From positions 136 to 64,135 of the forward strand of contig DAINRR010000010.1 in NCBI GenBank assembly GCA_036741715.1: 64,000 bases of DNA, given 5' to 3'. Each line of letters opens with the position of its first letter. Positions within the stretch are counted from its first letter, which is position 1. The notes beneath the pieces are model-generated. The model was not told the DNA's origin. It saw only the letters and a program-made list of their open reading frames with translations, and did not search any database. Positions 3,513-64,000 of the stretch are shown here, in pieces. A program made the position numbers and the translations under genes. The stretch comes from Gemmatimonadales bacterium (GTDB lineage: Bacteria; Gemmatimonadota; Gemmatimonadetes; Gemmatimonadales; GWC2-71-9).

Positions 3513-4282
3513 TCTGCCTCGACCGGAGGGCCGTGCCGGTGGGGATGCCCGCTGACCGCCCGGCCGACGAGGACCATCCCCGAGCGGCGGGCGATCTCCA
3601 CCGCGAGCGTCGAGGGAACCGAGGGTGTGGCCACCCACGCGAGCCCTGCCCGTGACGCCTTGAACGCGAGCTCTCCCGAGATCCGTCCGGTCACGAGCAT
3701 CCCGAGCCCCAGGACACGGCGGCGCGCGAGGAGTGCGATCCCGATCGCCTTGTCCACGGCGTTGTGGCGGCCGATGTCTTCCGCGTGCGCGATCAGCTCG
3801 GCGCCGTCCGTGAGTGCGGCGGCATGGATCCCGCCGGTATCCCGATAGCGCTCGCCGCGCCCGAACAGGTCCTTGAAGCGGGCGCGGAGCACATCGACGC
3901 CGGGAGGCTCGCCGCGCGCGGGCTCGGCCTCCACGGTGACCGGATCCGCCAGGAAAGTCGTGACGGCCCCGCAGCCCGACGCAAGCACCGGTCGGCGCCG
4001 CTCGGCGTCGACCCGGCTCACCCGTTCCGGGTCCACTTCGGCCCAGAAGCCGAGGTCGCTCGCACACGGGCGGAGCCGCACACCCGCGGCATCGTCGATG
4101 AATCCCTCGCCATGCAGCCAGCCGATGGCGAGCTCCTCGAGCAGGTCGGGCGTGCACATCCACGTGACCACCGGCCGGCCATTCACCTCGAGCCAGACCG
4201 GCACTTCCTCGACCGCCGCCGACTCCGCCATGGCGCCACCGCGCTTCGGCGGCCGGTCAGGCGGAACGGCCGGATCGGGCAT
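3509..4282 (-). CDS. fdhD: Formate dehydrogenase accessory sulfurtransferase FdhD
   Basis: EEVPVWLEVNG, TWMCTP..LEELAIGWL..EG, SGCG, TGGIHAAAL, EDIGRHNAVDKAIG and TGRISGE; start is 4282 or 4231. Confidence 0.92.
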   Translation of the reverse strand: MPDPAVPPDRPPKRGGAMAESAAVEEVPVWLEVNGRPVVTWMCTPDLLEELAIGWLHGEGFIDDAAGVRLRPCASDLGFWAEVDPERVSRVDAERRRPVLASGCGAVTTFLADPVTVEAEPARGEPPGVDVLRARFKDLFGRGERYRDTGGIHAAALTDGAELIAHAEDIGRHNAVDKAIGIALLARRRVLGLGMLVTGRISGELAFKASRAGLAWVATPSVPSTLAVEIARRSGMVLVGRAVSGHPHRHGPPVEAE

Positions 4283-21470: not shown

Positions 21471-21597
21471 GTCGCACCTCGCTTCGAGCGGTGACGATGC
21501 GGTAATCATACGGGCGCGAGCGCCAGGATGGTACCGGGGGACGATCGGGCAGTCGTGCCTCGACGCAGAAGTCACCGGACAAACGGCATTCGACTGC

Positions 21598-21750
21598 GCA
21601 CACGAAAACACGAAAGAACGAAGGCATGAATGGCTACGGCTTCGGGCCCCGCTGCAAAAAAACAGCTCCGGACCCGCCCGGGATCCGAAGCCGACCGTGG
21701 ACATACGTCCACAATGCCTTCTTTTCTTTCGCGTTTTCGCGCTTTCGCGA
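21598..21750. repeat. Inverted-arm element with 8-nt units (ACACGAAA subtype)
   Basis: Left arm GCACACGAAAACACGAAAGAACGAAGGCAT; right arm ATGCCTTCTTTTCTTTCGCGTTTTCGCG; internal stems. The first 18 nt are identical to 28743-28760. Confidence 0.85.
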
Positions 21751-21852
21751 TTCTACCAGCCCCCCACCCGCATCACCCTCAACCGCCCGCACGCCACAAC
21801 GGCCCCCGTTCACCGCCGCCCTCTTTCGCCCCCGCGCGGCACGGTCGACTGT

Positions 21853-22701
21853 CTAGCGCAGCCACTCCACGTTCACGTTCCCGATCGTCGTCGACAGCGA
21901 GATCTCGACCTTGCGCTCCGATGCTGCGTAGCCCGGCGAGAGATAGATGTTGCCCTCGCGCGTCCAGCCGGCGTCGGCGAAGCTCGCGAGGAACTTCGCC
22001 ATCTCCACACGTACGCCGACATTCCTCGGCAGCCGCAGGGTCAGTTCGCCCATCGTCATCGAGACGTCGAGCTTCGCATCCGAGGCCCACACGCCGCTCA
22101 GGTCGAGGAGGGCCGTGCCGACGCCGCCGCTGAAGGTGATGCGGTCGCAGCGGCTGTTGCCGAGCCCGGTCAGGATCACTTCCGCCGCGCCCGCCTCGAT
22201 GACCGCGGCGCTGCACGGTGCCAGGTTCGGCGTCGAGAAGCGAATGGCCGATCGGCTCGCGCCGGTGCCGATCCGGAGCGTGGTGACCCGCAGGCCGCCC
22301 AGCTCGATGTCCGCATCCACCGCGCCGAGTGCCACGTCGAGCGCGAGCGAAACCGACGGCGAGAGGTGTACGACCGCCGTCTGCTCGAGATGCTCGCGCG
22401 ACGAGACGCGAATCCCCGACCGGCCCGTGCTTTCGAGCCCGAGGTGGACCGAGCCGGCGACAGGATCGAAGCGGCTGATCGGCCGGAAGCGTTCGGTATC
22501 GTACGCGAGCTGGAGACCGTAGAGGCGGCTGGGCGGTCCGGGGGCGAGCCGGAGAGACCCGGCACCGAAATCGAGGCGGGTCGAGAGGCGGCTTTCACCG
22601 TGCCGCTGACGCGCGGAACTGAACTCCCGCATCTGCTGCGCCGCACCGGCTGCCGGGACGAGCAGCAGGGCGGCAGCCATCGCGAGGACCCCGCGCGTCA
22701 C
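21853..22701 (-). CDS. Secreted beta-rich protein (LiaF/DUF2154-like)
   Basis: Signal peptide ending GAAQ; repeated beta motifs (LDVALGAVDADIELGG, LDVSMTMGELTLRLP); GTGA coupling. Confidence 0.7.
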   Translation of the reverse strand: MTRGVLAMAAALLLVPAAGAAQQMREFSSARQRHGESRLSTRLDFGAGSLRLAPGPPSRLYGLQLAYDTERFRPISRFDPVAGSVHLGLESTGRSGIRVSSREHLEQTAVVHLSPSVSLALDVALGAVDADIELGGLRVTTLRIGTGASRSAIRFSTPNLAPCSAAVIEAGAAEVILTGLGNSRCDRITFSGGVGTALLDLSGVWASDAKLDVSMTMGELTLRLPRNVGVRVEMAKFLASFADAGWTREGNIYLSPGYAASERKVEISLSTTIGNVNVEWLR

Positions 22702-23993
22702 GCGCCGGGTCCGGTGGTGCGACTGCCCGCGCCCGGCCGCTTGACGGCGGGGACGCCGAACTGCGGGGTGGCCCAGAGGTACTCGTCCGTCAGCGCTTCG
22801 GGGGGGATGATGCGGCCGGCAAAATTCTCCCGGATCCCCGCCCGGCTCAGCAGGGCGGCGCCGAGGCCGGCGGTCGCGAGGAGCCAGGTGACGAGCACCG
22901 CCGCTCCGCGGATCAGGGCGCCCGCGACAGGCACCCACCCGAACAGGGCCCACGCGAGCCAGAGCGCGGTCGTCGCAACGAGGCCGACGAGGAGGAACTG
23001 ATAGCTTCCCGGCGCGCCGACCAGGATCCCCTGGGCGAGCCGGCGGCGCGTGTAGGTCTCTCCCATTGCATGCGCCACGGCGAGGTAACCACCCACGACG
23101 CCGATGATAACCAGGAGCAGGTAGACCGCGACGGCGAACGGCAGCAGCAGAATCCCGGCGACGCTCAGCACGAGCCCGACCACGAGCATCCCGAATGTCG
23201 GGAGGATGAGGATCTGCCCGACGAGTCCGGTGACGAAGGAGCGACCGAAGCTGTGGGAGACGGTATCCGAGACCACCTGCAGGTTCTGCCGGCCGAACGC
23301 GGCGAGACCACAGCCCAGCGCCGCCAGCGCCAGGAAGACGCCCACCACGCCGGCGAGCCGCCGAAGCGTGGCCGCTCCCGCGGACAGCGGCGGATCGGCG
23401 GCGGCTACCTGGGTGGTCGATGCACTCAGCGTCCGCGCCTCGCCGCCGATCTCGCCGCCCCGATCGTGCACGGCGCCGTGGATCGCGACGACGTCGCCCG
23501 AGATGACCGCGCCCGGGTGGACGACGATGTCGCCGTCGTAGGTGACGAGGTTCCCCTGCAGGCGGCCGAAGATCTGCGCGTCGCCGCGGACCACGAGCAG
23601 GTGACCGGCGATCGACTGATCCGAGCCGACGCTGTACGCCCCCAGACGGGCCGTGCCGTTGGGGATCGTGACCCGCATTTCGCTTTCGGGCAATGCGGCG
23701 AGGCGGTTCAGGTGCTCTTCGAGGGCGAGGGGGTTCGAGAGATCGGAGAGGTCGAGCGAAAGGCCCTGCGGCGGCGCCTCGGGAATGGCCTGCGGCTGCG
23801 CGGCCTGCGGACGGGACCGCACCGTGCGGACCGAATCGCTTCCTTCGCCCCGGATCTGCTGCAGGAACTGCCAGATATCCCGTGCGGCTCCGGCGGCGAC
23901 ATCGGCCGCATCCCCGGGATCCGCCTGGACGGGCCGGGCCGAGCCGCCGCCGACCAGCAGCGCAAGCGCGAGGGCGACGCTAGGCGTGCGCAT
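22698..23993 (-). CDS. Membrane protein with polymer-forming/bactofilin-like N-domain and C-terminal TM bundle
   Basis: Signal peptide; beta-repeat GDAQIFGRLQGNLVTYDGDIVVHPGAVISGDVVAIHG; four TM helices. Confidence 0.7.
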   Translation of the reverse strand: MRTPSVALALALLVGGGSARPVQADPGDAADVAAGAARDIWQFLQQIRGEGSDSVRTVRSRPQAAQPQAIPEAPPQGLSLDLSDLSNPLALEEHLNRLAALPESEMRVTIPNGTARLGAYSVGSDQSIAGHLLVVRGDAQIFGRLQGNLVTYDGDIVVHPGAVISGDVVAIHGAVHDRGGEIGGEARTLSASTTQVAAADPPLSAGAATLRRLAGVVGVFLALAALGCGLAAFGRQNLQVVSDTVSHSFGRSFVTGLVGQILILPTFGMLVVGLVLSVAGILLLPFAVAVYLLLVIIGVVGGYLAVAHAMGETYTRRRLAQGILVGAPGSYQFLLVGLVATTALWLAWALFGWVPVAGALIRGAAVLVTWLLATAGLGAALLSRAGIRENFAGRIIPPEALTDEYLWATPQFGVPAVKRPGAGSRTTGPGA

Positions 23994-24588
23994 GCGCCCC
24001 TCCCTGTGGAGGAAGGGCCATCAGCTTCCGCAGCGCGAAGACACCGCCGAGATAGACCGTCGAGATCACCGCGGAGAGAATGGCGAGGCGGGTCGGTGAG
24101 CCGAGGAAGCCGCGCGCCGCGGCATACCACGGCTGCTCCATCAGGTTGGCCGCACCGCCACGGACGGCGATCCAGAGCCAGCCGACGGCCTCGCCGCCGA
24201 GCCACGAGCCGGCCGCCGCGAGGGTCTCGCGATTGCCGAGCGTCCAGATGATGCTTGCCGCCATCGCGCCGACCACGATGATGGCGACCGAAGCCGCTGC
24301 GGCAAGCGAGCGCCGCGTGGCGAACATCCTGCGCCGCGCGGTGCCGAACGAGTGGAGCGCGAACGGGTCGGGCAGTACCACGCGCGCCATGACCTGCTCG
24401 GGGAATTCCGCCGAAGGGGCAAAGCGTGAGAGCGACTCCAGTCGCGTGACGAGCGTGCGATCCGCGGCGACCTGCTCGCGGCACGAGGCGCATTCGTCGA
24501 GGTGCCGGTGCGCGTCCTGGCTCGCGGCGCCCTCGAGGAGGGCGTCGAAATCGTCGGACGACAGGTGCGGATTCGCGGACCGGGTCAT
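23980..24588 (-). CDS. Zinc-binding anti-sigma factor (zf-HC2/ZAS)
   Basis: N-terminal His plus HLDECASC (HxxxCxxC), followed by TM segments; directly downstream of the ECF sigma gene. Confidence 0.85.
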   Translation of the reverse strand: MTRSANPHLSSDDFDALLEGAASQDAHRHLDECASCREQVAADRTLVTRLESLSRFAPSAEFPEQVMARVVLPDPFALHSFGTARRRMFATRRSLAAAASVAIIVVGAMAASIIWTLGNRETLAAAGSWLGGEAVGWLWIAVRGGAANLMEQPWYAAARGFLGSPTRLAILSAVISTVYLGGVFALRKLMALPPQGGAHAHA

Positions 24589-24625
24589 AAGTGAACCCTC
24601 CTACGGCAGGTATTCATCGAAGGTT

Positions 24626-25231
24626 TCATTCGCGGAGGTGGGCGAGCGACTGTCGCAACTCGTTACGCGCCCGGTGGATGTACGTCTTCACCGTACCGAG
24701 GGGAAGATTGAGGATTTCGGCGATTTCCTCGTACGCGCGGCCCTCGACGTGGCGGAGGAGAATGCAGGAGCGGTACTCGGGCCGGAGCCGGCCGATGGCC
24801 GCCTCGATGGCGCCGCCGAGCTCCTTCGCTTCGACGGCATCGAGAGGGGACTCGAGCCGGTTCCCGATCTGCAGCGCCGTCGCCTCCATCGCCTCGGGCG
24901 TCTCGGCGTGCGGCGAGCCGTCGAGCGAGAGGGTATCGAGCTCGCGCCGGCGGAGGTGATCGATCGCCGCGTTGTTGGCGATCTTGAAGATCCAGGAGGA
25001 GAACTTGAACTCGGGACGGTACGACTCGATGGCGTTGAGCGCCTTGACGAACGTCTCCTGGGCGAGGTCCTCGGCGAGCTCGCGATCGCGCACCATGCGG
25101 AAGACCAGCGAGAAGATCGGCCGCTCGTAGCGGCGGATCAGCTCGCGGTACGCCGGCTCGTGGCCCGTGCGTGCGAGGGCCACGACTTCCTGGTCCGTCG
25201 CGGCGGCGAGCGCGGCGCGCCGATCGGTCAC
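24626..25231 (-). CDS. ECF RNA polymerase sigma-70 factor
   Basis: AEDLAQETFVKA, FSSWIFKIANNAAIDHLRR and GTVKTYIHRARNELR; regions 2 and 4 only. Confidence 0.95.
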   Translation of the reverse strand: MTDRRAALAAATDQEVVALARTGHEPAYRELIRRYERPIFSLVFRMVRDRELAEDLAQETFVKALNAIESYRPEFKFSSWIFKIANNAAIDHLRRRELDTLSLDGSPHAETPEAMEATALQIGNRLESPLDAVEAKELGGAIEAAIGRLRPEYRSCILLRHVEGRAYEEIAEILNLPLGTVKTYIHRARNELRQSLAHLRE

Positions 25232-25285
25232 AGGCCGTGCCCGCTGCTTGCGGCGGGGCTCCGCAGGGGACTACATTCTGCGCCT

Positions 25286-26017
25286 ATGTTCGCCTCGGAT
25301 CGTGAGTTACCAGTCTCGGGCGGGGCGGAGAAGCGGGCCTACGTCCGCCAGATGTTCACCGCCGTCGCGCCCACGTACGACCGGCTCAACCGCATCATCA
25401 GCATGCGGCTGGATCTGTACTGGAGACGCAAATCGGTCGAGCAGCTCGACTGGGAGCGGGCTCCGGCCGGCCGCTATCTCGATCTCTGCGCCGGCACGCT
25501 CGATTTCGCCGCCATCCTCTCGCGCCAGCCGGGATTCCGCGGCCGGATCATCGGCGCGGATTTCGTACAGCCGATGCTCGAGCTCGGACGGCACAAGTCG
25601 GCTCGCGTCGATCCGGTCACGGCCGACGCCCTCGAGCTGCCCTTTCCTGATGCCGCGTTCGACGGCGCCGTGGTAGGATGGGGCGTCCGGAACCTGGCCG
25701 ACCTCGATGCCGGGCTCCGGGAAGCGGCGCGCGTCCTGAGGCCGGGAGCGCGGCTCGTCGTGCTCGAAATGAGCACGCCGCCGCACCAGCCGCTGCGCGG
25801 GCTGTATCTGGCCTACTTCGAGCACGTGCTGCCGCGCATCGGACGGTTGATCTCGAAACATACGACGGCGTATGACTGGCTTCCAGAGTCCGCCCGCGTC
25901 TTTCCCGATCCGCCGGAGCTCGCGCGCCGTCTGGAAGCCGCCGGATTCGCCGACGTCCGCTACACCCGCTTTCTTGGCGGGGTCACGGCAATGCACGTGG
26001 GAATTCGAAAGGAATGA
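25286..26017 (+). CDS. ubiE: UbiE/MenG family methyltransferase (demethylmenaquinone methyltransferase)
   Basis: VRQMFTAVAPTYDRLNRIIS, LDLCAGTLD, GVRNLADLDAGLREAARVLRPGA and YDWLPES. Confidence 0.9.
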   Translation: MFASDRELPVSGGAEKRAYVRQMFTAVAPTYDRLNRIISMRLDLYWRRKSVEQLDWERAPAGRYLDLCAGTLDFAAILSRQPGFRGRIIGADFVQPMLELGRHKSARVDPVTADALELPFPDAAFDGAVVGWGVRNLADLDAGLREAARVLRPGARLVVLEMSTPPHQPLRGLYLAYFEHVLPRIGRLISKHTTAYDWLPESARVFPDPPELARRLEAAGFADVRYTRFLGGVTAMHVGIRKE

Positions 26018-26031
26018 TCTGTTCTTGATCT

Positions 26032-26267
26032 TGAACCGCGGAGGCGCGGAGGCGCGGAGACACCACGGAGGGCTCCTGGTTGGGGTGGCTCCGTGAACAG
26101 TGTGAGGTTCCGTGAGGATTTTTGTGGGCTCGCCCACCGGCTCCGCGCGCCGGAGGAAGCCGGAGCCTTCAGAAAAATCAAAGCCGGATGGCTGCCCGGT
26201 GCACGGCGCTCTTCAATTCACGGAGCCCCTCCGCGTTCCCTCCGCGCTTCCGCGCCTCCGCGGTTCA
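26032..26267. repeat. Inverted-arm element with 8-nt units (GCGGAGGC subtype)
   Basis: Perfect 19-bp IR TGAACCGCGGAGGCGCGGA (26032-26050) / TCCGCGCCTCCGCGGTTCA (26249-26267), extending imperfectly to about 45 bp. Confidence 0.9.
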
Positions 26268-26294
26268 CAATGAAGCTTTCAACAAGTTCAATCA

Positions 26295-27773
26295 ATGGCG
26301 ATTGACAGTCTGCGGGACTTCATCACGGAAATCGACGCGATCGGCGAGCTGGTCCGGGTCACCGAACCGGTCCGGGCTCGGCTCGAGGTGGCCGAGATCG
26401 CGGATCGGTGCATGAAGAGCCCGGGCGGAGGGCCGGCGCTGCTGTTCGAGCAGGTGATCCTCGACAACGGCGAGCGCAGCGCGCACCCGGTGGCCATCAA
26501 TCTCTTCGGCTCGATGCGCCGGATGTGCCTGGCACTCGGGGTGCAGTCGCTCGATGAGGTGGGCGGGCGGATCTCGCAGCTTCTCGACCTCAAGGTGCCC
26601 GACGGACTGTTCGGGAAGCTCTCGATGCTCCCGAGGCTCGCGGAAGTCGCGAAGTTCCCGCCGAGAACCCGGAGCGGTCGGGCACCCTGCCAGGACGTGG
26701 TGCTTCAGGGACGCGAGGTGGATCTCGATGCGATCCCGTTCCTCACCACCTGGCCCGGCGATGGCGGCCGCTACATCACCCTGCCCATGGTGATCACCAC
26801 CGACCCCGCGCGCGGAACGCGCAACGTCGGGATGTATCGCATTCAGGTGCTCGGCCGGGACACGCTCGCCATGCACTGGCAGCGGCACAAGGTCGGTGCC
26901 GCGCACTGGCGCGACATGGCGGCGCGCGGCGAGCGGATGCCCGTGGTGATCGCGCTCGGCGGCGATCCGGCGAGCATCTACTCGGGCTCGGCGCCACTGC
27001 CTCCGAACATCGACGAGTTCATTTTCGCCGGCTTCCTCCGGAGAGCACCGGTCGAGCTCGCCAGGGCGATCACGTGCGATCTCGAGGTGCCCGCCGAGGC
27101 GGAAATGGTGATCGAGGGCTACATCGATCCGGCCGAGGAGCTCGTGCTGGAGGGACCCTTCGGCGACCACACGGGATTCTACTCGCTCGCCGACTACTAC
27201 CCGAAGGTGCACGTCACGGCGATCACCATGCGCCGGAACCCGATCTATCCGGCGACGCTCGTCGGGAAGCCGCCGATGGAAGACTACTATCTCGGCCATG
27301 CCACCGAGCGCATCTTCCTGCCGCTGCTCCGGCTCACGGTTCCCGAGATCGTGGACTACCACATGCCCGCGGCCGGGATCTTCCACAATCTCGTCTTCGT
27401 GTCCATCGACAAGCAGTATCCGGGGCAGGCCTACAAGGTCATGAACGCCCTCTGGGGCCAGGGACTGATGTCCCTGGCGAAGGTCCTGGTGATCGTGGAT
27501 CGCGAGATCGATGTCCGCAACCCCGATGAGGCGTGGTGGGCCGCCCTCAACAACATCGATCCGGAGCGCGACGTGCGCTTCACGATGGGACCGGTGGACG
27601 TCCTCGACCATGCGAGCCGCGCCTTCACCTACGGCAGCAAGATGGGCATCGACGGTACGCGGAAGTGGCCGGAAGAGGGGTTCGCACGCGAGTGGCCGGA
27701 CGTGATCGAGATGGATCCGGCGACGAAGGCGCGCGTCGATGAGCTGTGGCCGAAGCTGGGCATCACCTTGTGA
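26295..27773 (+). CDS. ubiD: UbiD family prFMN decarboxylase (MqnL-like)
   Basis: GGGPALLF, INLFGS, RNVGMYRIQV, MHWQRHK, EGPFGDHTGFYS and GKPPMED. Confidence 0.95.
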   Translation: MAIDSLRDFITEIDAIGELVRVTEPVRARLEVAEIADRCMKSPGGGPALLFEQVILDNGERSAHPVAINLFGSMRRMCLALGVQSLDEVGGRISQLLDLKVPDGLFGKLSMLPRLAEVAKFPPRTRSGRAPCQDVVLQGREVDLDAIPFLTTWPGDGGRYITLPMVITTDPARGTRNVGMYRIQVLGRDTLAMHWQRHKVGAAHWRDMAARGERMPVVIALGGDPASIYSGSAPLPPNIDEFIFAGFLRRAPVELARAITCDLEVPAEAEMVIEGYIDPAEELVLEGPFGDHTGFYSLADYYPKVHVTAITMRRNPIYPATLVGKPPMEDYYLGHATERIFLPLLRLTVPEIVDYHMPAAGIFHNLVFVSIDKQYPGQAYKVMNALWGQGLMSLAKVLVIVDREIDVRNPDEAWWAALNNIDPERDVRFTMGPVDVLDHASRAFTYGSKMGIDGTRKWPEEGFAREWPDVIEMDPATKARVDELWPKLGITL

Positions 27774-28690
27774 GCCACGGAGGCGCGGCCACGCGGAGGA
27801 CGCAGGAAGGACAGACGTTCGGCGGCGACTCGCTGCTGATCCGGTACGTCAACTTCGTGAAGCTGCCGCATACCCTCTTTGCGCTGCCGTTCGCGCTGCT
27901 CGGCGTTCTGGCGGCCTCGCGCGTCGCGCCGGTCGAGTGGCGGACGGTCCTCTGGGTCGTCGTCGCATTCTCCGCGGCGCGCTGGGTCGCGATGGGGTTC
28001 AATCGCATCGCGGACCGCGCCTACGATGCGCGCAATCCCCGGACGATGAACCGCGAGCTGCCGAAGGGGACGCTCTCGCTCGGGCAGGCCTGGACGTCGG
28101 TTGCCCTGGCGTCGGCGCTGTTCGTCGTCGCGGCATGGTCGCTCAACCCGCTTTGTGCCCTGCTGAGCCCTGTCGCGCTCGCGTGGATCGTCGCCTACAG
28201 CTTCGCGAAGCGGTTCACGTCCTGGCCGCATCTCTGGCTCGGGATGAGCCTCGCGATCGCGCCCGTGGGCGGTTATATCGCCGTGACGGGCGCGTGGAGC
28301 CGGCCGGCGTGGCTGCTCGTCGCGATCACGATCGGCGTCGCGACGTGGGTGGCCGGATTCGACATCTTCTATGCGCTCCCCGACGAGTCGTTCGACCGAT
28401 CGGAAGGTCTCCGGAGCGCCGTGGTCCGCCTCGGCCAGCGCCGCGCGATCCTCGCGGCCAAGCTCCTGCACGGCGCCACGATCCCGGCACTCGCGCTGTT
28501 CGGGTGGGGTGCGGGGTTCGGGATCTGGTACTACGCCGGCCTTCTCGTGGCCGCAGGCATTCTCGCCTACGAACACCGGCTTGTGACGCCCGGCAACCTC
28601 TCGCGTCTCGACGCCGCGTTCTTCACGATGAACGGCGTGATGAGCGTGACGGTCTTCATCTTCGCGCTGGCGGACAGGCTCGTTCGATAG
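27770..28690 (+). CDS. ubiA: UbiA family prenyltransferase (MqnP-like)
   Basis: KLPHTLFALPFA, AMGFNRIADRAYDARNPRTMNRELP, YSFAKRFT and GFDIFYALPD. Confidence 0.93.
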   Translation: MSHGGAATRRTQEGQTFGGDSLLIRYVNFVKLPHTLFALPFALLGVLAASRVAPVEWRTVLWVVVAFSAARWVAMGFNRIADRAYDARNPRTMNRELPKGTLSLGQAWTSVALASALFVVAAWSLNPLCALLSPVALAWIVAYSFAKRFTSWPHLWLGMSLAIAPVGGYIAVTGAWSRPAWLLVAITIGVATWVAGFDIFYALPDESFDRSEGLRSAVVRLGQRRAILAAKLLHGATIPALALFGWGAGFGIWYYAGLLVAAGILAYEHRLVTPGNLSRLDAAFFTMNGVMSVTVFIFALADRLVR

Positions 28691-28742
28691 AACCGTCGAA
28701 GGCGGCGGGAGCGACCATCGGGGACAGGGAACCGTTTCAAAA

Positions 28743-28867
28743 GCACACGAAAACACGAAAGCGCGAAGGGGCCCGATTTCGGGCGAGGCTCCCAGCTCCG
28801 CCCCAGCTCAAAGTCTTTCGTAGTGTTCGTGTTTTCGCAGTTTCCCTGTTTTCGTGTTTTCGTGTGC
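28743..28867. repeat. Inverted-arm element with 8-nt units (ACACGAAA subtype)
   Basis: Perfect 18-bp IR GCACACGAAAACACGAAA (28743-28760) / TTTCGTGTTTTCGTGTGC (28850-28867). Confidence 0.9.
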
Positions 28868-28921
28868 GGCAGTTTACTACTCCCGGGCTGATTCTCACCT
28901 CGCACGCCGATCCGAGGTCCG

Positions 28922-29509
28922 ATGACCCGACAGCTTCCAACGGTACTTGCGATCACGGGTGCGAGCGGGGCGCCGTATGCGGTGCGGCTCCTCGAGGTGC
29001 TCACGCGGGCTCGAGTGCCGGTCTGGCTCATCGTCTCCGGCCACGGCATGCGACTCCTGCAGGAGGAGTGCGGAATCGGCAGTCTCGAGGCACTCGAGGG
29101 GGCCGTGGCCGCAGAGGGGTCCGATGTGCGGACCTTCACCGACTCGGATCGCGGCGCGAAGCCGGCCTCGGGATCGCAGCCGACGGCGGGGATGGTGATC
29201 TGTCCCTGCTCGATGGGCACACTGTCGGCCGTTGCCCACGGCTCGAGCCGCTCGCTCATCGAGCGCGCGGCCGACGTGACGCTCAAGGAGGGGCGGAAGC
29301 TGGTGCTCGTGCCGAGGGAGACACCACTCTCGCTGGTCCACCTGCGGAACATGGCCGCCTGCGTCGAGGCGGGCGCCACCGTGCTGCCGGCGGCGCCCGG
29401 CTTCTATCACCGGCCGACGCGGGTCGCGGAGCTCGTGGATTTCGTCGTGCAGCGGATCGTGGACCAGCTCGGACTCGGCCTCGACATCACGCGCCGCTGG
29501 GAGGGGTGA
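28922..29509 (+). CDS. ubiX: Flavin prenyltransferase UbiX
   Basis: AITGASGAPY, ASGS, PCSMGTL, RAADVTLKEGRKLVLVPRETP and PAAPGFYHRP. Confidence 0.96.
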   Translation: MTRQLPTVLAITGASGAPYAVRLLEVLTRARVPVWLIVSGHGMRLLQEECGIGSLEALEGAVAAEGSDVRTFTDSDRGAKPASGSQPTAGMVICPCSMGTLSAVAHGSSRSLIERAADVTLKEGRKLVLVPRETPLSLVHLRNMAACVEAGATVLPAAPGFYHRPTRVAELVDFVVQRIVDQLGLGLDITRRWEG

Positions 29510-32263: not shown

Positions 32264-33373
32264 TCAGGCGGGAGCCCAGTCGGCGAGCGGGCTCGTGCGC
32301 TTGAGCGCCTCCGGGTGTGCCCGGAACCACGACTGCATCAGCAGGATCTCGTCGATCGACTCGAGCGGGAGGGCTCCGGTGGGCGGCGCGGGGCGGTCGA
32401 GCTCGGCCTGGACCACGGCACGGAAGGCCTCTTCCTCGATCGGTGTCGCCGGCCAGGGATACGAGGCACGCACGACACCCTGGCGCAGGACGTAGGCGCG
32501 GTCGTCGCCCCGGTCGCCCGGATCTCGATAGACGAAAGTGAGGAGGTCGATCGCCGAGCGTGCGCGGCTCGTCGCGGCGAGGAGCCATTCGAGCTGCTCG
32601 AAACGCTCGCGCCACCGACCTGCCAGCTCGAATTCCGCCTCTTCGGCCGCCCGGCTCATCTCCGTCACGACGCGGTCGATCGGCTTGATCGTCCGCCCCT
32701 CGAGAAACGCCGCGGCTGTCTCCACCCGTTGACGGTAGGCCCACTCCGCGATGAATCCGGCGCACGGCGCACCGCACGAGCCGAACTCGTGGCGGGGGCA
32801 CGCGGCGCGGCGGTCGGCGCCGAACAGGTCGGCCTGACCGGAAAACACCATGGGCATGTTCGCCGCGCAGTCCCGCAGACCGAGGAGGTCGTTGAGCGTG
32901 CGCACCGCCTCCTGCGTGCGCTCCATCGAGCGGAACGGCCCGTAGACACGCTCATCGCCTGCCGCGACCGCACTCCCTGCGTGGACCCGCGGCGCAGGGC
33001 CGCCGGAGATCTTGATGAGGACGGAGCGCCGGGTGCGGTTGAGCTTGAAGTTGAAGTGCGGGCGGTACTCGCGGATCTGGCGGAGCTCGGTAAGGAGCGC
33101 GGCGAACTCGCTCGGGACATAGGTCCACCGGATCTCGTGCGCCGCATAGAGGATGCGCGCCGCCTTGTCCGCGGGATACTCGGCCCGAAAGTAGCAGAGC
33201 AGCCGTGTCCGGAGCCGTTTCGCCTTTCCGACGTAGAGGATCTTTCCCGTCCCATCGATCATCTGGTACACCGCGGGCCGGTTCTCGGCCAGCGCGCGCA
33301 CCCGCGTGCGAAGGTGGTCGAGATCGGTCGCCGGCAGCGCCAGCAGGCGGGTGCGGCGCTTCAGTGCTGGCAT
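32264..33373 (-). CDS. GIY-YIG endonuclease, truncated UvrC/Cho-like
   Basis: PAVYQM...ILYVGKAKRLRTRLLCYF, ELRQIREYRPHFN, YGPF, four-Cys cluster and UVR coiled coil; no RNase H or HhH C-terminus. Confidence 0.85.
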   Translation of the reverse strand: MPALKRRTRLLALPATDLDHLRTRVRALAENRPAVYQMIDGTGKILYVGKAKRLRTRLLCYFRAEYPADKAARILYAAHEIRWTYVPSEFAALLTELRQIREYRPHFNFKLNRTRRSVLIKISGGPAPRVHAGSAVAAGDERVYGPFRSMERTQEAVRTLNDLLGLRDCAANMPMVFSGQADLFGADRRAACPRHEFGSCGAPCAGFIAEWAYRQRVETAAAFLEGRTIKPIDRVVTEMSRAAEEAEFELAGRWRERFEQLEWLLAATSRARSAIDLLTFVYRDPGDRGDDRAYVLRQGVVRASYPWPATPIEEEAFRAVVQAELDRPAPPTGALPLESIDEILLMQSWFRAHPEALKRTSPLADWAPA

Positions 33374-34188
33374 CGATGGCAGAACACGGTGGACCGCCCG
33401 TCGATGAGGTGTGTCAGCGTGAGCCGGGTGCCGCACCGGCGGCACGGCTCGCCTTCCCGGCCGTAGACCAGGAGCTCGAACTGGAAGTTTCCCTTCTCGC
33501 CGGTGCCGGTGCGGTAGTCGCGGAAGGTGGTGCCCTTCGATCGGATCGCCGCCGTGAGGATCCGGCGGACTTCGGCGTGGAGTGCGGCGTATTCGGCCGC
33601 CGTCACGCCTTTGGCAGGGCGCGACGGATCGATCCGCGCCGCGAACAGCGCTTCGTTCGCATAGATGTTCCCCACGCCCACCACGTATCGCTGGTCCATC
33701 AGCACCTTCTTGATCGCCTGGCGGGAGCGGCCGAGTCGTCCGGCGAAATCGTCTGCGGTGAATTCGGGGTCGAGCGGCTCGGGGCCGAGCGCCTCGTCGT
33801 ACTGCCGCCATGCCGCGTCACTCAGGAGGAGGAGTGTTCCGAGCCGCCGCACGTCCCGGTAGACGAGCTCCCGCCCGTCGTCGAGCGCCGCCCGGAGCAC
33901 GGCGTACCTGGCGTCCGCACCTGCCAGCGGCTCCTCCGCGATGAAGAGCACTCCGCTCATGCCCGGCTGGATCACGAGGCGGCGACCGGTGTCGAGCGCG
34001 AGGACGGCGTGCTTCGCGCGGCGCGACAGATCGACGACCTCGGCGCCCCGGAGCCCGGCGAGGAGGCGGCGGCGAGTGACATCCCGCAGGACATCGTCGT
34101 GAGAGAGGGCAGCCCGGAGAATCGTACGGCCCAAGAGCGCCGGGCGCAGGTCGCGCACGATCGTCTCGACTTCGGGGAGCTCGGGCAT
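33361..34188 (-). CDS. mutM: Formamidopyrimidine-DNA glycosylase
   Basis: MPELPEVET, RRAKH, DVRRLG, LGPEPL, GVGNIYANEALF and zinc finger CRRC...CHRCQ. Confidence 0.97.
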   Translation of the reverse strand: MPELPEVETIVRDLRPALLGRTILRAALSHDDVLRDVTRRRLLAGLRGAEVVDLSRRAKHAVLALDTGRRLVIQPGMSGVLFIAEEPLAGADARYAVLRAALDDGRELVYRDVRRLGTLLLLSDAAWRQYDEALGPEPLDPEFTADDFAGRLGRSRQAIKKVLMDQRYVVGVGNIYANEALFAARIDPSRPAKGVTAAEYAALHAEVRRILTAAIRSKGTTFRDYRTGTGEKGNFQFELLVYGREGEPCRRCGTRLTLTHLIDGRSTVFCHRCQH

Positions 34189-34214
34189 TCTTGATTGAAG
34201 ATAGGATGGGAGGG

Positions 34215-34254
34215 CGGAAGGACGGAAGGACGGAAAGACGGACAGACGGAAGGA
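34215..34254. repeat. Solo arm of 8-nt units (ACGGAAGG subtype)
   Basis: CGGAAGGACGGAAGGACGGAAAGACGGA (34215-34242) is an exact 28-nt reverse-complement match to 63552-63579. Confidence 0.85.
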
Positions 34255-61355: not shown

Positions 61356-62201
61356 TCAGCTGGACGACTCTCCCGGCCGGCGGCTCACCCGCTCGGTCAC
61401 GTAGCTGTCGGGCGGAGCATTCGGCTTGACCCGCACCGACTTGGCGGGAATGCCGACGTTCACGTGATATGGCCGGACGTCCTTGGTCGCGAGCGCCGAG
61501 GCGCCCACCATCCCGTTCCGGCCCACCCGGACGCCGGCGAGCACGGTCGCGTGATAGGTGATCCGCACGTCGTCCTCGAGCACGGTGCGGACGCTCGTCA
61601 CGTCCTTCTGCTCGACGATGCTGTGCGTGTGGCTGTAGATGTTGGCGTAGTCGGAGATGCTGACGCGGTCGCCGAGCGTGATGCCGCCGCGGTCGTCGAG
61701 GAGCACGTGCCGGTGGACCACGACGTCGTCACCGACCTCCATGTTGTACCCGAAGGAGAATTCGGTGTGCTGGAAGCATTTGAAGTTCTTCCCGCAGCGC
61801 GCGAAGATCCGTGGCGCGAGGATCCGGCGGAGGCGCACGCCGAGGTCCACGTTCTGGGCCCCGGCGGCGGTGCGGTCGAAGCTGTACCACAGCCAGAGCA
61901 GCGGCTTCACGCGGGCGAACCGCTCGCGGTCCACGTCGCCGTAGTACTCGGGCTCGAGCGTGACGTTGCGGGGATCGAGCGTCGCCAGCATGGCCTTCGT
62001 CGCGGCGGGCACCGCCGGATCGGCGAGCCGCTCGGCGAGGTCGGCACCGGGAGCGCAGAGATCGACCAGGGTCTGCCGGCAGATCGCGTACCAGTCAGCA
62101 TCCTTCGCGCCGAGCTTGTCGTCGAGCTCGCCGAGCCAGGCGGCATAGATCCGCTCGGCGGCATCGGGCAGGGCGACGGGGCGGAGGGGCAGGTTCACCA
62201 T
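61356..62201 (-). CDS. Hexapeptide-repeat acyltransferase
   Basis: MEVGDDVVVH, ITLGDRVSIS, NIYSHTH, VRVGRNGMVGASALATKD and GIPAK. Confidence 0.88.
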   Translation of the reverse strand: MVNLPLRPVALPDAAERIYAAWLGELDDKLGAKDADWYAICRQTLVDLCAPGADLAERLADPAVPAATKAMLATLDPRNVTLEPEYYGDVDRERFARVKPLLWLWYSFDRTAAGAQNVDLGVRLRRILAPRIFARCGKNFKCFQHTEFSFGYNMEVGDDVVVHRHVLLDDRGGITLGDRVSISDYANIYSHTHSIVEQKDVTSVRTVLEDDVRITYHATVLAGVRVGRNGMVGASALATKDVRPYHVNVGIPAKSVRVKPNAPPDSYVTERVSRRPGESSS

Positions 62202-62252
62202 GGGATCTCCTGGTGCCGGGGCTGGTGCTCGCCGACGGTCGGGCGGCGCGGA

Positions 62253-62885
62253 CTACCTCGGCGTGGCCGCCAGCCGGTCGCGCTCCCGCTGCAGCTGCGG
62301 CAGCCGCCGCTCCCACTCGCGGGATGCGAGCGTCTCGTAGTTCACGGTGAACGGCTCCCACACCGGCAGCAGCTCCTCGAAGATGTAGACCGCCATCGCA
62401 CTCTCACGTGAGTTGAGCTGGGCGGCGCCGAAGCGGGGGCTCAGCGGCACGATGGCCATGGGCCGGAGGAACTGGTTGCGGGCGGTGAGCGTGAGGAGCT
62501 CGGGGTCGAACCGGGCCCCGGGCTGCAGCGCGAAGAAGGTGACGAGCGCGAGGCCCGGCTCGGAGACACCGGCCGCGCGCCCTGCGGAATCGATGGCCGG
62601 CCGGTTCCGCTCGACGAGCCGCTGGAGCGACTCCGCGCCGTCGCGCGCGAGGAGGGTCGTGATCCGGATGTCGAGCGGCACGAAGCGGATCTCGAGCTCG
62701 TCGGTGCGGAGCCGGATGGCGATCTCGTTCTGGCTGAGCGTGCCGTAGACCCCGGCCGGGACCACGACAGAATCGGAGGCGCCGGCCGGTGCCGTCGCCG
62801 CAGGAGGCGTCTGCGCCCGCGCGCAGGCGGCCGCGGTGGCGACCGAAACGAGGACCATCGCCAGCGAAGCGACCGTGCGTCTCAT
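62253..62885 (-). CDS. Hypothetical secreted protein or lipoprotein
   Basis: Leader [21 protein letters not shown]; ATGA coupling to engB. Confidence 0.65.
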   Translation of the reverse strand: MRRTVASLAMVLVSVATAAACARAQTPPAATAPAGASDSVVVPAGVYGTLSQNEIAIRLRTDELEIRFVPLDIRITTLLARDGAESLQRLVERNRPAIDSAGRAAGVSEPGLALVTFFALQPGARFDPELLTLTARNQFLRPMAIVPLSPRFGAAQLNSRESAMAVYIFEELLPVWEPFTVNYETLASREWERRLPQLQRERDRLAATPR

Positions 62886-63592
62886 GCCGTCTCCGGGTTC
62901 AATGCCGCGAGGATGCTCGCGCCGAGGTCGGCGATCCCCTGGCCCGTCTCGCTGCTCACGAGCTGCGTCTGGCTCTCGTCGAGCCCGAGGGCGCGGGCGA
63001 TGGCCCGGCTCTGTGTGACCTGTGCCTGCCGCCCGAGCTTGTCCGCCTTGGTGAACACCGCGAGCACCGATGTTCCCGACTCGATCAGGAGCTCCTGCAT
63101 CGCGATGTCGTCCTTCGAGGGCATGTGGCGCACGTCGAGCAGCCATACGACGCCCATCAGCCGCTCGCGCCGGCGCAGATAGCCGTCGACGAGCGTGCGA
63201 TAGCTCTCGCGCACGGACTTGCTCGCCCGCGCAAATCCGTAGCCCGGAAGGTCCACCAGGTAGAACTCCGGCAGCCGGAAGACGTTGATGTGAGCTGTCT
63301 TTCCCGGCGTGCCGCTGACGCGCGCGAGGCCCGCCCGGCCCGTGAGGGCGTTGAGCAGGCTCGACTTGCCGACGTTCGATCGGCCGACGAAGGCGATTTC
63401 CGGGAGGCTGGGAGAGAGCCGGACGGCCGGATCGGGGAAGCTGCCGATGAAGTCGACGGGGAGGTCGTAGAAGGGGCGGACGAAAGGACGGAAAGACGGA
63501 AGGACGGAAGGCGTCGCCGCGCGGCGGAGATCCTGCAGTTCCTTCGACCTTTCCGTCTTTCCGTCCTTCCGTCCTTCCGTCTCCCGGCTCAC
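62882..63592 (-). CDS. engB: Ribosome biogenesis GTPase EngB/YihA/YsxC with repeat-derived N-terminal extension
   Basis: [33 protein letters not shown] and TKADKL; GTG start overlaps the clpX stop. Confidence 0.95.
63479..63583. repeat. Inverted-arm element with 8-nt units (ACGGAAGG subtype) inside the engB 5' coding region
   Basis: Perfect 18-bp IR AGACGGAAGGACGGAAGG (63494-63511) / CCTTCCGTCCTTCCGTCT (63565-63582) with further units on both arms. Confidence 0.9.
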
Positions 63593-64000
63593 GCCTCCCG
63601 CTTGGCCCTGGGCCGCTCGGTCACGATGAGCGGCTGCTTGCCGTCCGTGACCGACTCCTTCGTGATCACCACTTCGCGCACGTCATCGCGGCTCGGGAGG
63701 TCGAACATCATGTCGGTCATGAGCATCTCGAGGATGGAGCGGAGGCCGCGCGCACCGGTGCCGCGCTTGAGCGCCTTCTCCGCCACCGCCCGGAGCGCCT
63801 CGGCATCGAACGTGAGGCCGACGTTCTCGAGCTCGAAGAGCTTCTTGTACTGCTTGGTGAGCGCATTCTTCGGCTCGAGCAGGATGCGGACGAGCGCATC
63901 CTCGTCGAGCGCCTCGAGGGAGACCACGACCGGGAGCCGGCCCACGAGCTCGGGGATCAGGCCGAAGCGGAGCAGGTCGTCCGGCTCCACCTCGGCGTAG
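63589..64000 (-). CDS. clpX: ATP-dependent Clp protease ATP-binding subunit ClpX (3' part only)
   Basis: [29 protein letters not shown] and [11 protein letters not shown]. Confidence 0.97.

Follow-up and report, generated by a model that had tools for sequence, protein, structure and literature searches.

Gene layout at the clpX-engB junction

The DNA analysed here is a stretch of 64,000 nt, referred to below as the window, from contig DAINRR010000010.1 (assembly GCA_036741715.1) of a soil Gemmatimonadales bacterium. It carries, both on the minus strand, the 3' part of clpX and the gene for the ribosome-assembly GTPase EngB (YihA/YsxC), and this work concerns a hairpin-forming palindromic repeat that lies in frame directly after the engB start codon. 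This element almost certainly adds a disordered tail of 36 residues to EngB. The interrupted palindrome lies between engB codons 2 and 39, and the features of the locus are as follows (all minus strand).

63589-64000: 3' part of clpX, the C-terminal 137 codons, continuing beyond the edge of the window; end K-R-E-A-TGA
62882-63592: engB (yihA, ysxC), an open reading frame (ORF) of 236 aa including the insert, with a GTG start
63590-63592: GTG start codon of engB, overlapping the clpX TGA at 63589-63591 (GTGA; two bases shared)
63473-63587: inserted segment, 115 nt where the empty allele has only GGGGGCT (7 nt), making engB longer by a net 108 nt or 36 codons
63549-63582: purine-rich arm, on the 5' side in the mRNA, built of about four 8-nt units (GGACGGAA / AGACGGAA), delimited by Tandem Repeats Finder (TRF), repeat search and fold
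63512-63548: spacer or apical loop, 37 nt, holding an in-frame near-cognate CTG at 63536-63538
63478-63511: pyrimidine-rich arm, on the 3' side in the mRNA, likewise of about four 8-nt units (TTCCGTCC)
63362-63385: G1 motif or P-loop, GRSNVGKS, EngB codons 70-77; columns invariant in the EngB alignment

The clpX gene was identified from related loci, which carry the Pfam domains zf-C4_ClpX, AAA_2 and ClpB_D2-small at the same position. The best homologues of the engB product carry PF01926, some of them being named YihA/YsxC, and EngB/YsxC structures in the PDB (1sul/1svi for YsxC) match it with E-values down to 3.5e-38, from query residues 47-61 onward. The product has the GxxxxGKS P-loop, homology to solved structures and a GTPase core predicted with confidence by AlphaFold, as expected of an EngB protein. 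An earlier reading of this DNA made from its letters alone (the sequence-only reading) had placed the engB GTG over the clpX stop codon, and the ORF coordinates agree. The AAGCGGGAGGCGTGA junction is kept in the window and at loci L001, L008-L014 and L094-L100; that of L015 is slightly different, with the GTGA overlap retained.

Architecture and fold of the inserted segment

The bounds of the inserted segment were set by aligning inserted with empty alleles and by an ungapped alignment of six inserted alleles. The element begins 5 nt past the engB GTG and its stem about 8 nt past it; the element ends read GGGAGACGG... and ...CGTCCGCCCC, and native sequence restarts at F-Y-D-L-P, the 'RP' before these residues being part of the junction. 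The sequence-only reading had described an in-frame palindrome of 105 nt, or 35 codons, at this place; the palindrome stands, but its size has to be corrected to a net 108 nt, or 36 codons, by comparison with the empty alleles.

Two 8-nt arrays were reported by TRF, at 63478-63511 (GGACGGAA x4.2) and 63549-63582 (CTTTCCGT x4.2), and the arms are inverted repeats of 31-34 nt with 85-90% complementarity. The 16-mer GGACGGAAGGACGGAA, with up to two mismatches, occurs nine times in the window, against 0.07 occurrences expected, and all nine lie within 34212-34243 or 63478-63582. When folded as RNA, the engB element reaches -74.2 kcal/mol (z = -4.6), a value equalled by none of 200 shuffles. The 8-nt units are read in rotating frames, GGACGGAA giving G-R-K-D-G-R-T-E and TTCCGTCC giving F-R-P-S-V-L-P-S. 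A scan for intrinsic terminators found no terminator-like site in 63200-63900, the stem being followed by CCCCTTCTACGACC without a T-run, and the promoter scan run together with it at the engB junction found none.

On the minus strand, the native clpX end CGGGAGGCG is similar to the 5' end of the element, CGGGAGACG, 14 nt downstream, and the flanks GGAGGCGUGAG and CUUCUACGACCUCC (63585-63605 and 63460-63475) can pair across the element; in the empty allele, a weak hairpin is formed by these flanks. This likeness and this pairing may bear on how the element arrived or on occlusion of the start codon.

The empty allele in close relatives

Close relatives were found by a protein search with EngB, and fall into two length classes, one of 236 aa (P0001-P0007, 84-98% identity) and one of 200 aa (P0008-P0018). 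The 200-aa EngB has no extension and begins M-[R/K/S/T]-G-A-F-Y-D-L-P. It represents the uninserted allele that the sequence-only reading had proposed to seek among the EngB N-termini of relatives, and its empty site, GTGAGGGGGGCTTTCTAC, is found in relatives with 92-96% identity in engB core DNA. Four empty alleles (L008-L011) read ...AAGCGGGAGGCGTGAGGGGGGCTTTCTACGAC... and have the same GTGA overlap as the window. Of the empty alleles compared with the window over the 576 nt of the engB core, L011 shows 95.8% identity and L008 94.3%. Since the core is nearly identical in the window and in these alleles, the difference between inserted and empty is, on this comparison, a recent polymorphism rather than an old divergence. 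Independent ENA and JGI assemblies contain seven inserted variants, one being a 236-aa allele with 98% identity and the same first 45 residues.

The core of the window is 83.5% identical to that of L001 (synonymous divergence, dS, 0.56) and the element 93.3% identical; with L012, the core is 93.1% identical (dS 0.23) and the element 64%, with a spacer that looks unrelated, and the core of L012 is 96.9% identical to that of the empty allele L008. Comparison in 50-nt blocks gave mosaic tracts of 100% identity, shared by the window with differing partners. The history of the element is, as far as these alignments indicate, decoupled from that of engB, and recombination appears to shuffle both presence or absence and element type. 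As all six alleles have an equal length of 108 nt, we read this as one old insertion, later represented by an 'A-type' (GGACGGAA), a 'T-type' (GGTCGGAA / GGTCGGAC) and an intermediate (L097), together with an empty allele that would be either ancestral or a precise deletion.

Selection on the hairpin and on the peptide

The six inserted alleles align without gaps over 139 nt, and RNAalifold with pair counting yielded a helix of 33 pairs, 97% paired, in which 10 pairs have changed on both sides. These double-sided changes consist of A-U to U-A at the same position of every unit, and also of A-U to C-G/G-C and G-C to A-U. None of 500 shuffles reached the observed values, and sliding the partner by 1-3 columns lowered pairing to 38-52%. 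In helix 1 of the consensus fold, the partner of the GGAGGCGUG region is the stretch directly 3' of the element; these pairs are invariant, and so uninformative. Folding energies of -77 to -103 kcal/mol (z = -6 to -10) were obtained for the inserted alleles of relatives, but no significant structure for the empty allele's 5' end (z = +0.75).

The encoded peptides differ between inserted alleles (e.g. EGSDGRKVGRSD.../RRSDGRAVGQSE...), and the ratio of non-synonymous to synonymous divergence (dN/dS) of the insert is about 1 (0.4-1.5), versus 0.05-0.17 for the engB core. This strong purifying selection on the core indicates that the inserted engB alleles are working genes. AlphaFold gives a predicted local distance difference test score (pLDDT) of 37-51 for residues 1-40, next to the confident GTPase core. 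Given the compensatory pairs in the stem and an insert dN/dS of about 1, what is maintained is the nucleic-acid hairpin and not the peptide, and the tail is, from sequence comparison and structure prediction, a disordered passenger. The sequence-only reading had also suggested that this repeat family creates new protein sequence, which holds only in a weak sense, the added residues evolving neutrally and being predicted to be disordered.

Probable translation through the element

Between codon 1 and the G1 motif at codon 70, the sole in-frame ATG, GTG or TTG of the window allele is the GTG at 63590-63592, and near-cognates are limited to codon 19 (CTG, 63536-63538) and codons 49 and 66 (both ATC). 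Canonical initiation must therefore read the element, because no other in-frame ATG, GTG or TTG precedes G1; the same argument had been made in the sequence-only reading, and the codon scan agrees with it. The frame from GTGA is open into the EngB core at every Gemmatimonadales locus read, including those for which annotation pipelines chose an internal start (TTG in L012, GTG in L094 and ATG in L099). Four of the six alleles with a 108-nt insert (window, L001, L098 and L013) have no canonical internal start when read from the alignment. The 8-nt units are stop-free in all six frames, so that the absence of stop codons proves little and the real filter is a length of 3n. With empty alleles at hand, and the GTGA frame open in all inserted alleles, the earlier description of a palindromic repeat in frame after the engB start is upheld.

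The shortest EngB calls, P0021 and P0023, were considered as out-of-frame counter-examples and rejected; both lack the element, and their GTGA start is a plain one, overlapping or in frame.

Recurrence of hairpins at the junction

N-termini of 29-45 residues with a [G/R/K/D/E]...[P/S/F/R/T] pattern were found in 23 of the 120 best EngB clusters (all apparently Gemmatimonadales). These clusters fall in at least four separate tree groups, and the DNA was read for four, as listed here.

L094: +126 nt, GGTCGGAA arms, -99 kcal/mol, in frame from GTGA
L095: GACGGTCA / CGACCGTC arms, -87 kcal/mol, in frame from GTGA
L096: long GC palindrome, -103 kcal/mol, in frame from GTGA
L100, 10001-10140, on a distant Gemmatimonadales contig: 5' arm (AAGCGGGG x3) intact and 3' arm decayed, the 40-residue extension persisting as plain coding sequence

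The extension of L100 looks like a repeat-derived segment that is becoming ordinary coding sequence. Because its 3' arm has decayed, the hairpin is, on this evidence, dispensable at the clpX-engB junction, where its presence appears to be long-lived.

The gene order tig-clpP-clpX-engB-(210-aa)-(281-aa hexapeptide-repeat)-GAF/PAS histidine kinase is conserved across Gemmatimonadales (window 61356-63592, L008, L094 and L100). The 210-aa protein encoded after engB has no Pfam match and is uncharacterised; its start overlaps the engB stop.

A dispersed class of hairpins with 8-nt-periodic arms

The window holds five loci of this class, four of them intergenic. Besides the engB element, these are the following, the neighbouring genes being named from Pfam.

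34203-34254, plus strand: solo arm, (AGGACGGA) x6.5, with no partner arm; non-coding
21600-21749, no strand assigned: hairpin of 8-nt units ACACGAAA / CTTTCGCG with an 85-nt spacer, intergenic, upstream of a DUF4126 gene; -86.7 kcal/mol, z = -6.2
26032-26267, no strand assigned: hairpin with arms CGCGGAGG / TCCGCGCT separated by a spacer of 180 nt, immediately before ubiD (26295-27773, plus strand); -148.6 kcal/mol, z = -8.1
28743-28867, no strand assigned: hairpin with arms ACACGAAA / TTTCGTGT, between ubiA (27746-28690, plus strand) and a ubiX-like flavoprotein gene (28922-29509, plus strand); -56.9 kcal/mol, z = -5.8

Period-8 runs number six in the window, versus none for periods 7 and 9-12. 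The sequence-only reading had already reported a non-coding copy of the same arm at 34215-34242, which was recovered here with an extent of 34203-34254. Read on the minus strand, this solo arm is a pyrimidine-rich (TCCGTCCT)n tract, its end lying 14 nt before the ATG of fpg/mutM (34188). The Pfam domains of Fpg begin at residue 1 of the ORF at 33361-34188, and the start at 34188 is fixed by the catalytic N-terminal Met-Pro of Fpg.

Outside the window, GGACGGAA arms are found with other spacers at non-coding sites in other soil metagenomes (L006 and L007), and a scan of metagenome contigs returned one full relative and two non-coding copies of the element. Of the features of transposable elements of the miniature inverted-repeat kind (MITEs), terminal inverted repeats are present; the copies share arms and not spacers (63512-63548 compared with L006 and L007). 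Strong inverted repeats numbered 15 in 168 kb of Gemmatimonadales DNA, 11 of them with period-8 arms; 1.27 Mb from other phyla contained 116, only 9 of which had arms of period 7 or 8. The control loci from other phyla came from a profile search of genome contigs with the EngB alignment, only three Gemmatimonadota loci being among the matches. Eight of the nine periodic hairpins belong to Bacteroidota (Hymenobacter, Mucilaginibacter, Cytophagales and Maribacter) and one to an Acidobacteriota metagenome-assembled genome (MAG); none was found in the Firmicutes or Actinobacteria loci examined. Their presence in other phyla suggests a wider class, and their positions are as follows.

L072: 3401-3549, 11119-11205 and 15369-15489
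L073: 3106-3224 and 18063-18255
L069: 9634-9888
L090: 10850-11012
L091: 4614-4737
L087: 1540-1615

The purine-rich arm comes first in all members of the class. The apparent rule that the purine arm always faces the downstream gene was rejected as an artefact; as such a palindrome reads purine-arm-first on both strands, the order is a property of the element and not of gene orientation. Rfam 15 gave no match over the window at the gathering threshold, and relaxed thresholds gave only sub-threshold, generic microRNA-precursor hairpins in 63350-63700 and nothing in 21500-29000. The element peptide was sought in other proteins with a 40-aa query, which yielded no candidate words, and by phmmer with the 41-aa N-terminus, which found no match among 1.84 billion representatives, these queries being powerless. 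In the DNA of the loci examined, element peptides were encoded only at the two window loci and in the non-coding copies of L006, L007 and L014.

In the Gemmatimonadales MAG locus L015, a period-8 hairpin at 4135-4222 (GACGCTAC x4 / TAGCGTC...) overlaps the 3' end of engB, and its 5' arm encodes the last 11 or so residues of EngB (DATTLRRYDAT) and the TAA stop. With this arm encoding the EngB C-terminus, the class can supply coding sequence at either end of a gene. A solo array, (GGACGGAA)x4 ending in GGAAGGAGATG, was also found on the viral contig IMGVR_UViG_3300037067_004600 (L101, 3000-3045), directly before a small ORF that starts with ATG; no complementary arm was seen in the approximately 220 nt read after the array, which may be a purine-rich ribosome-binding region or a chance match.

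Proposed mechanism and alternative explanations

The engB element is probably a dispersed hairpin repeat that has been tolerated in frame and is translated from the coupled GTG as a neutral, disordered tail, its hairpin being maintained as nucleic acid. Tolerance would be favoured by an element that is stop-free in any frame, by a net length of 3n and by a natural variability of the EngB N-terminus before the '(L)PV(D/E)F' strand. Ribosomes that have completed clpX would start again on the GTG that overlaps its stop codon; they would then melt the stem of 33 bp, and the EngB that they produce would carry a disordered N-terminal tail of 36 residues. The stem and the pairing of GGAGGCGUG should exclude free 30S subunits, and engB expression would then depend strictly on clpX translation and be lower than that from the empty allele. 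Within the population, the element would behave as a polymorphic allele (empty, 'A-type' or 'T-type' arms) shuffled by recombination.

Several points weigh against this interpretation. A stem of -74 kcal/mol located 8 nt past a start codon is a severe obstacle, translation of the element is itself inferred, and the spacers of L097, L012 and L094 contain an in-frame TTG or GTG, at which internal initiation is possible. The alignment of inserted with empty alleles showed no clean target-site duplication or microhomology at the junction, and no transposase was identified, no search having been aimed at transposases. The word insertion is taken solely from the polymorphism, which either a gain or a precise loss could have produced, and a neighbour-joining tree of 121 EngB cores places the inserted alleles basally in the clade, with the empty alleles nested among them. 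The putative effect on clpX-engB coupling, also raised in the sequence-only reading, and on expression may be regarded as plausible.

The hairpin might instead be a selected punctuation mark of the operon, a possibility that we hold to be real but doubtful. It would act as an RNase III site, an attenuator devoid of a U-tract or a 3' stabiliser of the tig-clpP-clpX message, setting a low EngB:ClpX ratio, and would be forced into the engB frame because the genes overlap. Such a role would account for the presence, at precisely this boundary, of hairpins that differ in sequence and length among four or more Gemmatimonadales clades, including a deep one (about 65-75% aa identity in the core), and for other members of the class between co-directional operon genes, such as ubiA and ubiX; the Xanthomonas analogues described below also lie an average of 28 nt after the upstream ORF (PMC4692102). 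Compensatory change that keeps the stem while the peptide drifts would be expected as well, but a selfish palindrome needing its hairpin to propagate predicts the same maintenance. Close relatives nevertheless do without the hairpin, and L100 has lost its 3' arm to decay and kept the extension as plain coding sequence; moreover, no T-run follows the stem, and cleavage by RNase III within it would sever the start codon from engB. A broader conjecture, which seems rather unlikely, is that hairpins with 7/8-nt-periodic arms form an undescribed class in Gemmatimonadota, Bacteroidota and possibly Acidobacteriota, with a dedicated mechanism that generates or maintains them, and are used as operon punctuation that has repeatedly been forced into the engB frame. 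If this were true, the class would be defined by a purine arm first, about four units per arm and a free unit sequence, the ribosome would translate a stem of -75 to -100 kcal/mol, and engB would be strictly coupled to clpX.

It is improbable that the element is effectively intercistronic, with EngB initiated at the CTG of codon 19, in the loop, or at the ATC of codon 49, so that the repeat, or at least its 5' arm, would be absent from the protein. The CTG lies in the apical spacer after a purine-rich GAAGGAA, and other alleles have a spacer TTG or GTG that annotation pipelines have chosen (L012 and L094); however, the purine run belongs to the stem and is only 1-2 nt from the CTG, which is not conserved, the spacer of L013 containing no start-like codon and that of L097 a TTG at another position. 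The empty alleles start at the same GTGA, and all inserted alleles have a net length of 3n and are open from GTGA, which is needed only if GTGA is used, although this is also the sole state that a gene caller would join. A functional tail, such as a charged or proline-rich arm touching the ribosome, is a highly improbable explanation: the tail does have a charged stretch followed by a P/S-rich sequence, and similar [G/R/K/D/E]...[P/S/F/R/T] extensions are present in many lineages, but its composition is that of 8-nt units translated in rotating frames, it is predicted to be disordered, the insert has the dN/dS of about 1 given above against the low values of the core, and near-identical genomes lack it. 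Palindromes are prone to mis-assembly, yet an assembly artefact, or an ancestral extension unrelated to repeats, is scarcely credible, given inserted variants in independent ENA and JGI assemblies, arms common to non-coding copies and empty alleles at 94-96% nucleotide identity.

Comparison with known repeats and coding palindromes

Intragenic MITE-like repeats (ERIC, BOX and QMITE1) have been described for which in-frame fusion is 'not unusual', Rickettsia palindromic elements (RPEs) being the extreme case (PMC10969869). Like an RPE, the engB element, read as a tolerated and translated hairpin repeat, is a dispersed, hairpin-forming repeat of about 100-150 nt that lies in frame in a conserved housekeeping gene and adds a tolerated peptide, close relatives holding the uninserted gene. 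It differs in that RPE families encode a conserved peptide, whereas the peptide of the engB element drifts neutrally; in that its arms are tandem 8-nt units and its copies share arms and not the spacer; in its position directly after a translationally coupled start codon; and in its occurrence in Gemmatimonadales, a sequence relationship being neither shown nor expected. The element thus appears to work like an RPE without being a member of that family, and is set apart by its unconserved peptide. Repetitive extragenic palindromes (REP/REPIN; palindromes of 20-40 bp with a GTAG or CGTC head, associated with a RAYT transposase) were considered and set aside on the ends and the stem, the element having GGGAGACGG/CGTCCGCCCC ends and a 33-bp stem of 8-nt units.

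In its architecture, the element most resembles the GGGAATC heptamer arrays of Xanthomonas. Four is the commonest number of units in these arrays, which as a rule come in pairs that converge; most lie in the intergenic space of co-directional genes, 7-11% overlap ORFs, and their positions are poorly conserved between related species (Rehm et al., 2015; PMC4692102). Both systems consist of two convergent arrays of about four units, the G-rich or purine-rich one first, capable of forming a stem-loop, dispersed and mainly intergenic. The unit here is of 8 nt rather than 7, several unrelated units (GGACGGAA, ACACGAAA and CGCGGAGG) coexist in one genome, and the phylum is another; G-quadruplex potential is not general here, and the in-frame N-terminal case is not described in Xanthomonas. 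The literature, coverage of which was incomplete, yielded no account of hairpins with octamer arms in Gemmatimonadetes or of a Bacteroidota class with 7/8-nt units, an absence that is weak evidence.

Other systems share single traits with the engB element. Coding palindromes of Nematomorpha mitochondrial genes have arms under amino-acid constraint (PMC6649704), and are likewise long, stable inverted repeats within translated sequence, both arms being read by the ribosome; there, however, the arms encode conserved protein, whereas those of engB form an unconstrained tail, a recent polymorphic addition. In Beggiatoaceae, Cyanobacteria and Bacteroidetes, tandem TAACTGA heptamers are found shortly before start codons (PMC4679880). 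Like the solo arm at 34203-34254 before fpg, they are short tandem units a few nucleotides from a start codon, but they are direct repeats without a complementary arm, have another unit and are untranslated. Translational coupling by the unfolding of a structure that occludes a start codon is known from phage MS2 and from ribosomal-protein operons. The downstream start is reachable there only by ribosomes arriving from the upstream cistron, as would be the case for engB, but the occluding structure is situated within the ribosome-binding site or ahead of it, and it is no mobile repeat that ribosomes read as part of the downstream protein.

Significance

The feature is, on the sequence evidence, real and of moderate interest: a structured repeat is apparently translated where an essential, translationally coupled gene begins, and it leads to an uncharacterised class of repeats. 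It offers a natural experiment, in which the sole difference between near-isogenic alleles encoding an essential GTPase of ribosome assembly is a GC-rich hairpin of 33 bp located 8 nt past a coupled start. It would extend the Rickettsia precedent, in which repeats add peptide segments to proteins, to a free-living soil phylum, and L100 would show the decay of such repeat-derived segments into ordinary coding sequence. It also draws attention to hairpins with octamer-periodic arms, a family abundant in this lineage and absent from Rfam. If the hairpin sets the EngB:ClpX ratio or enforces coupling, this would be a case of a mobile repeat rewiring the expression of an operon from inside a reading frame.

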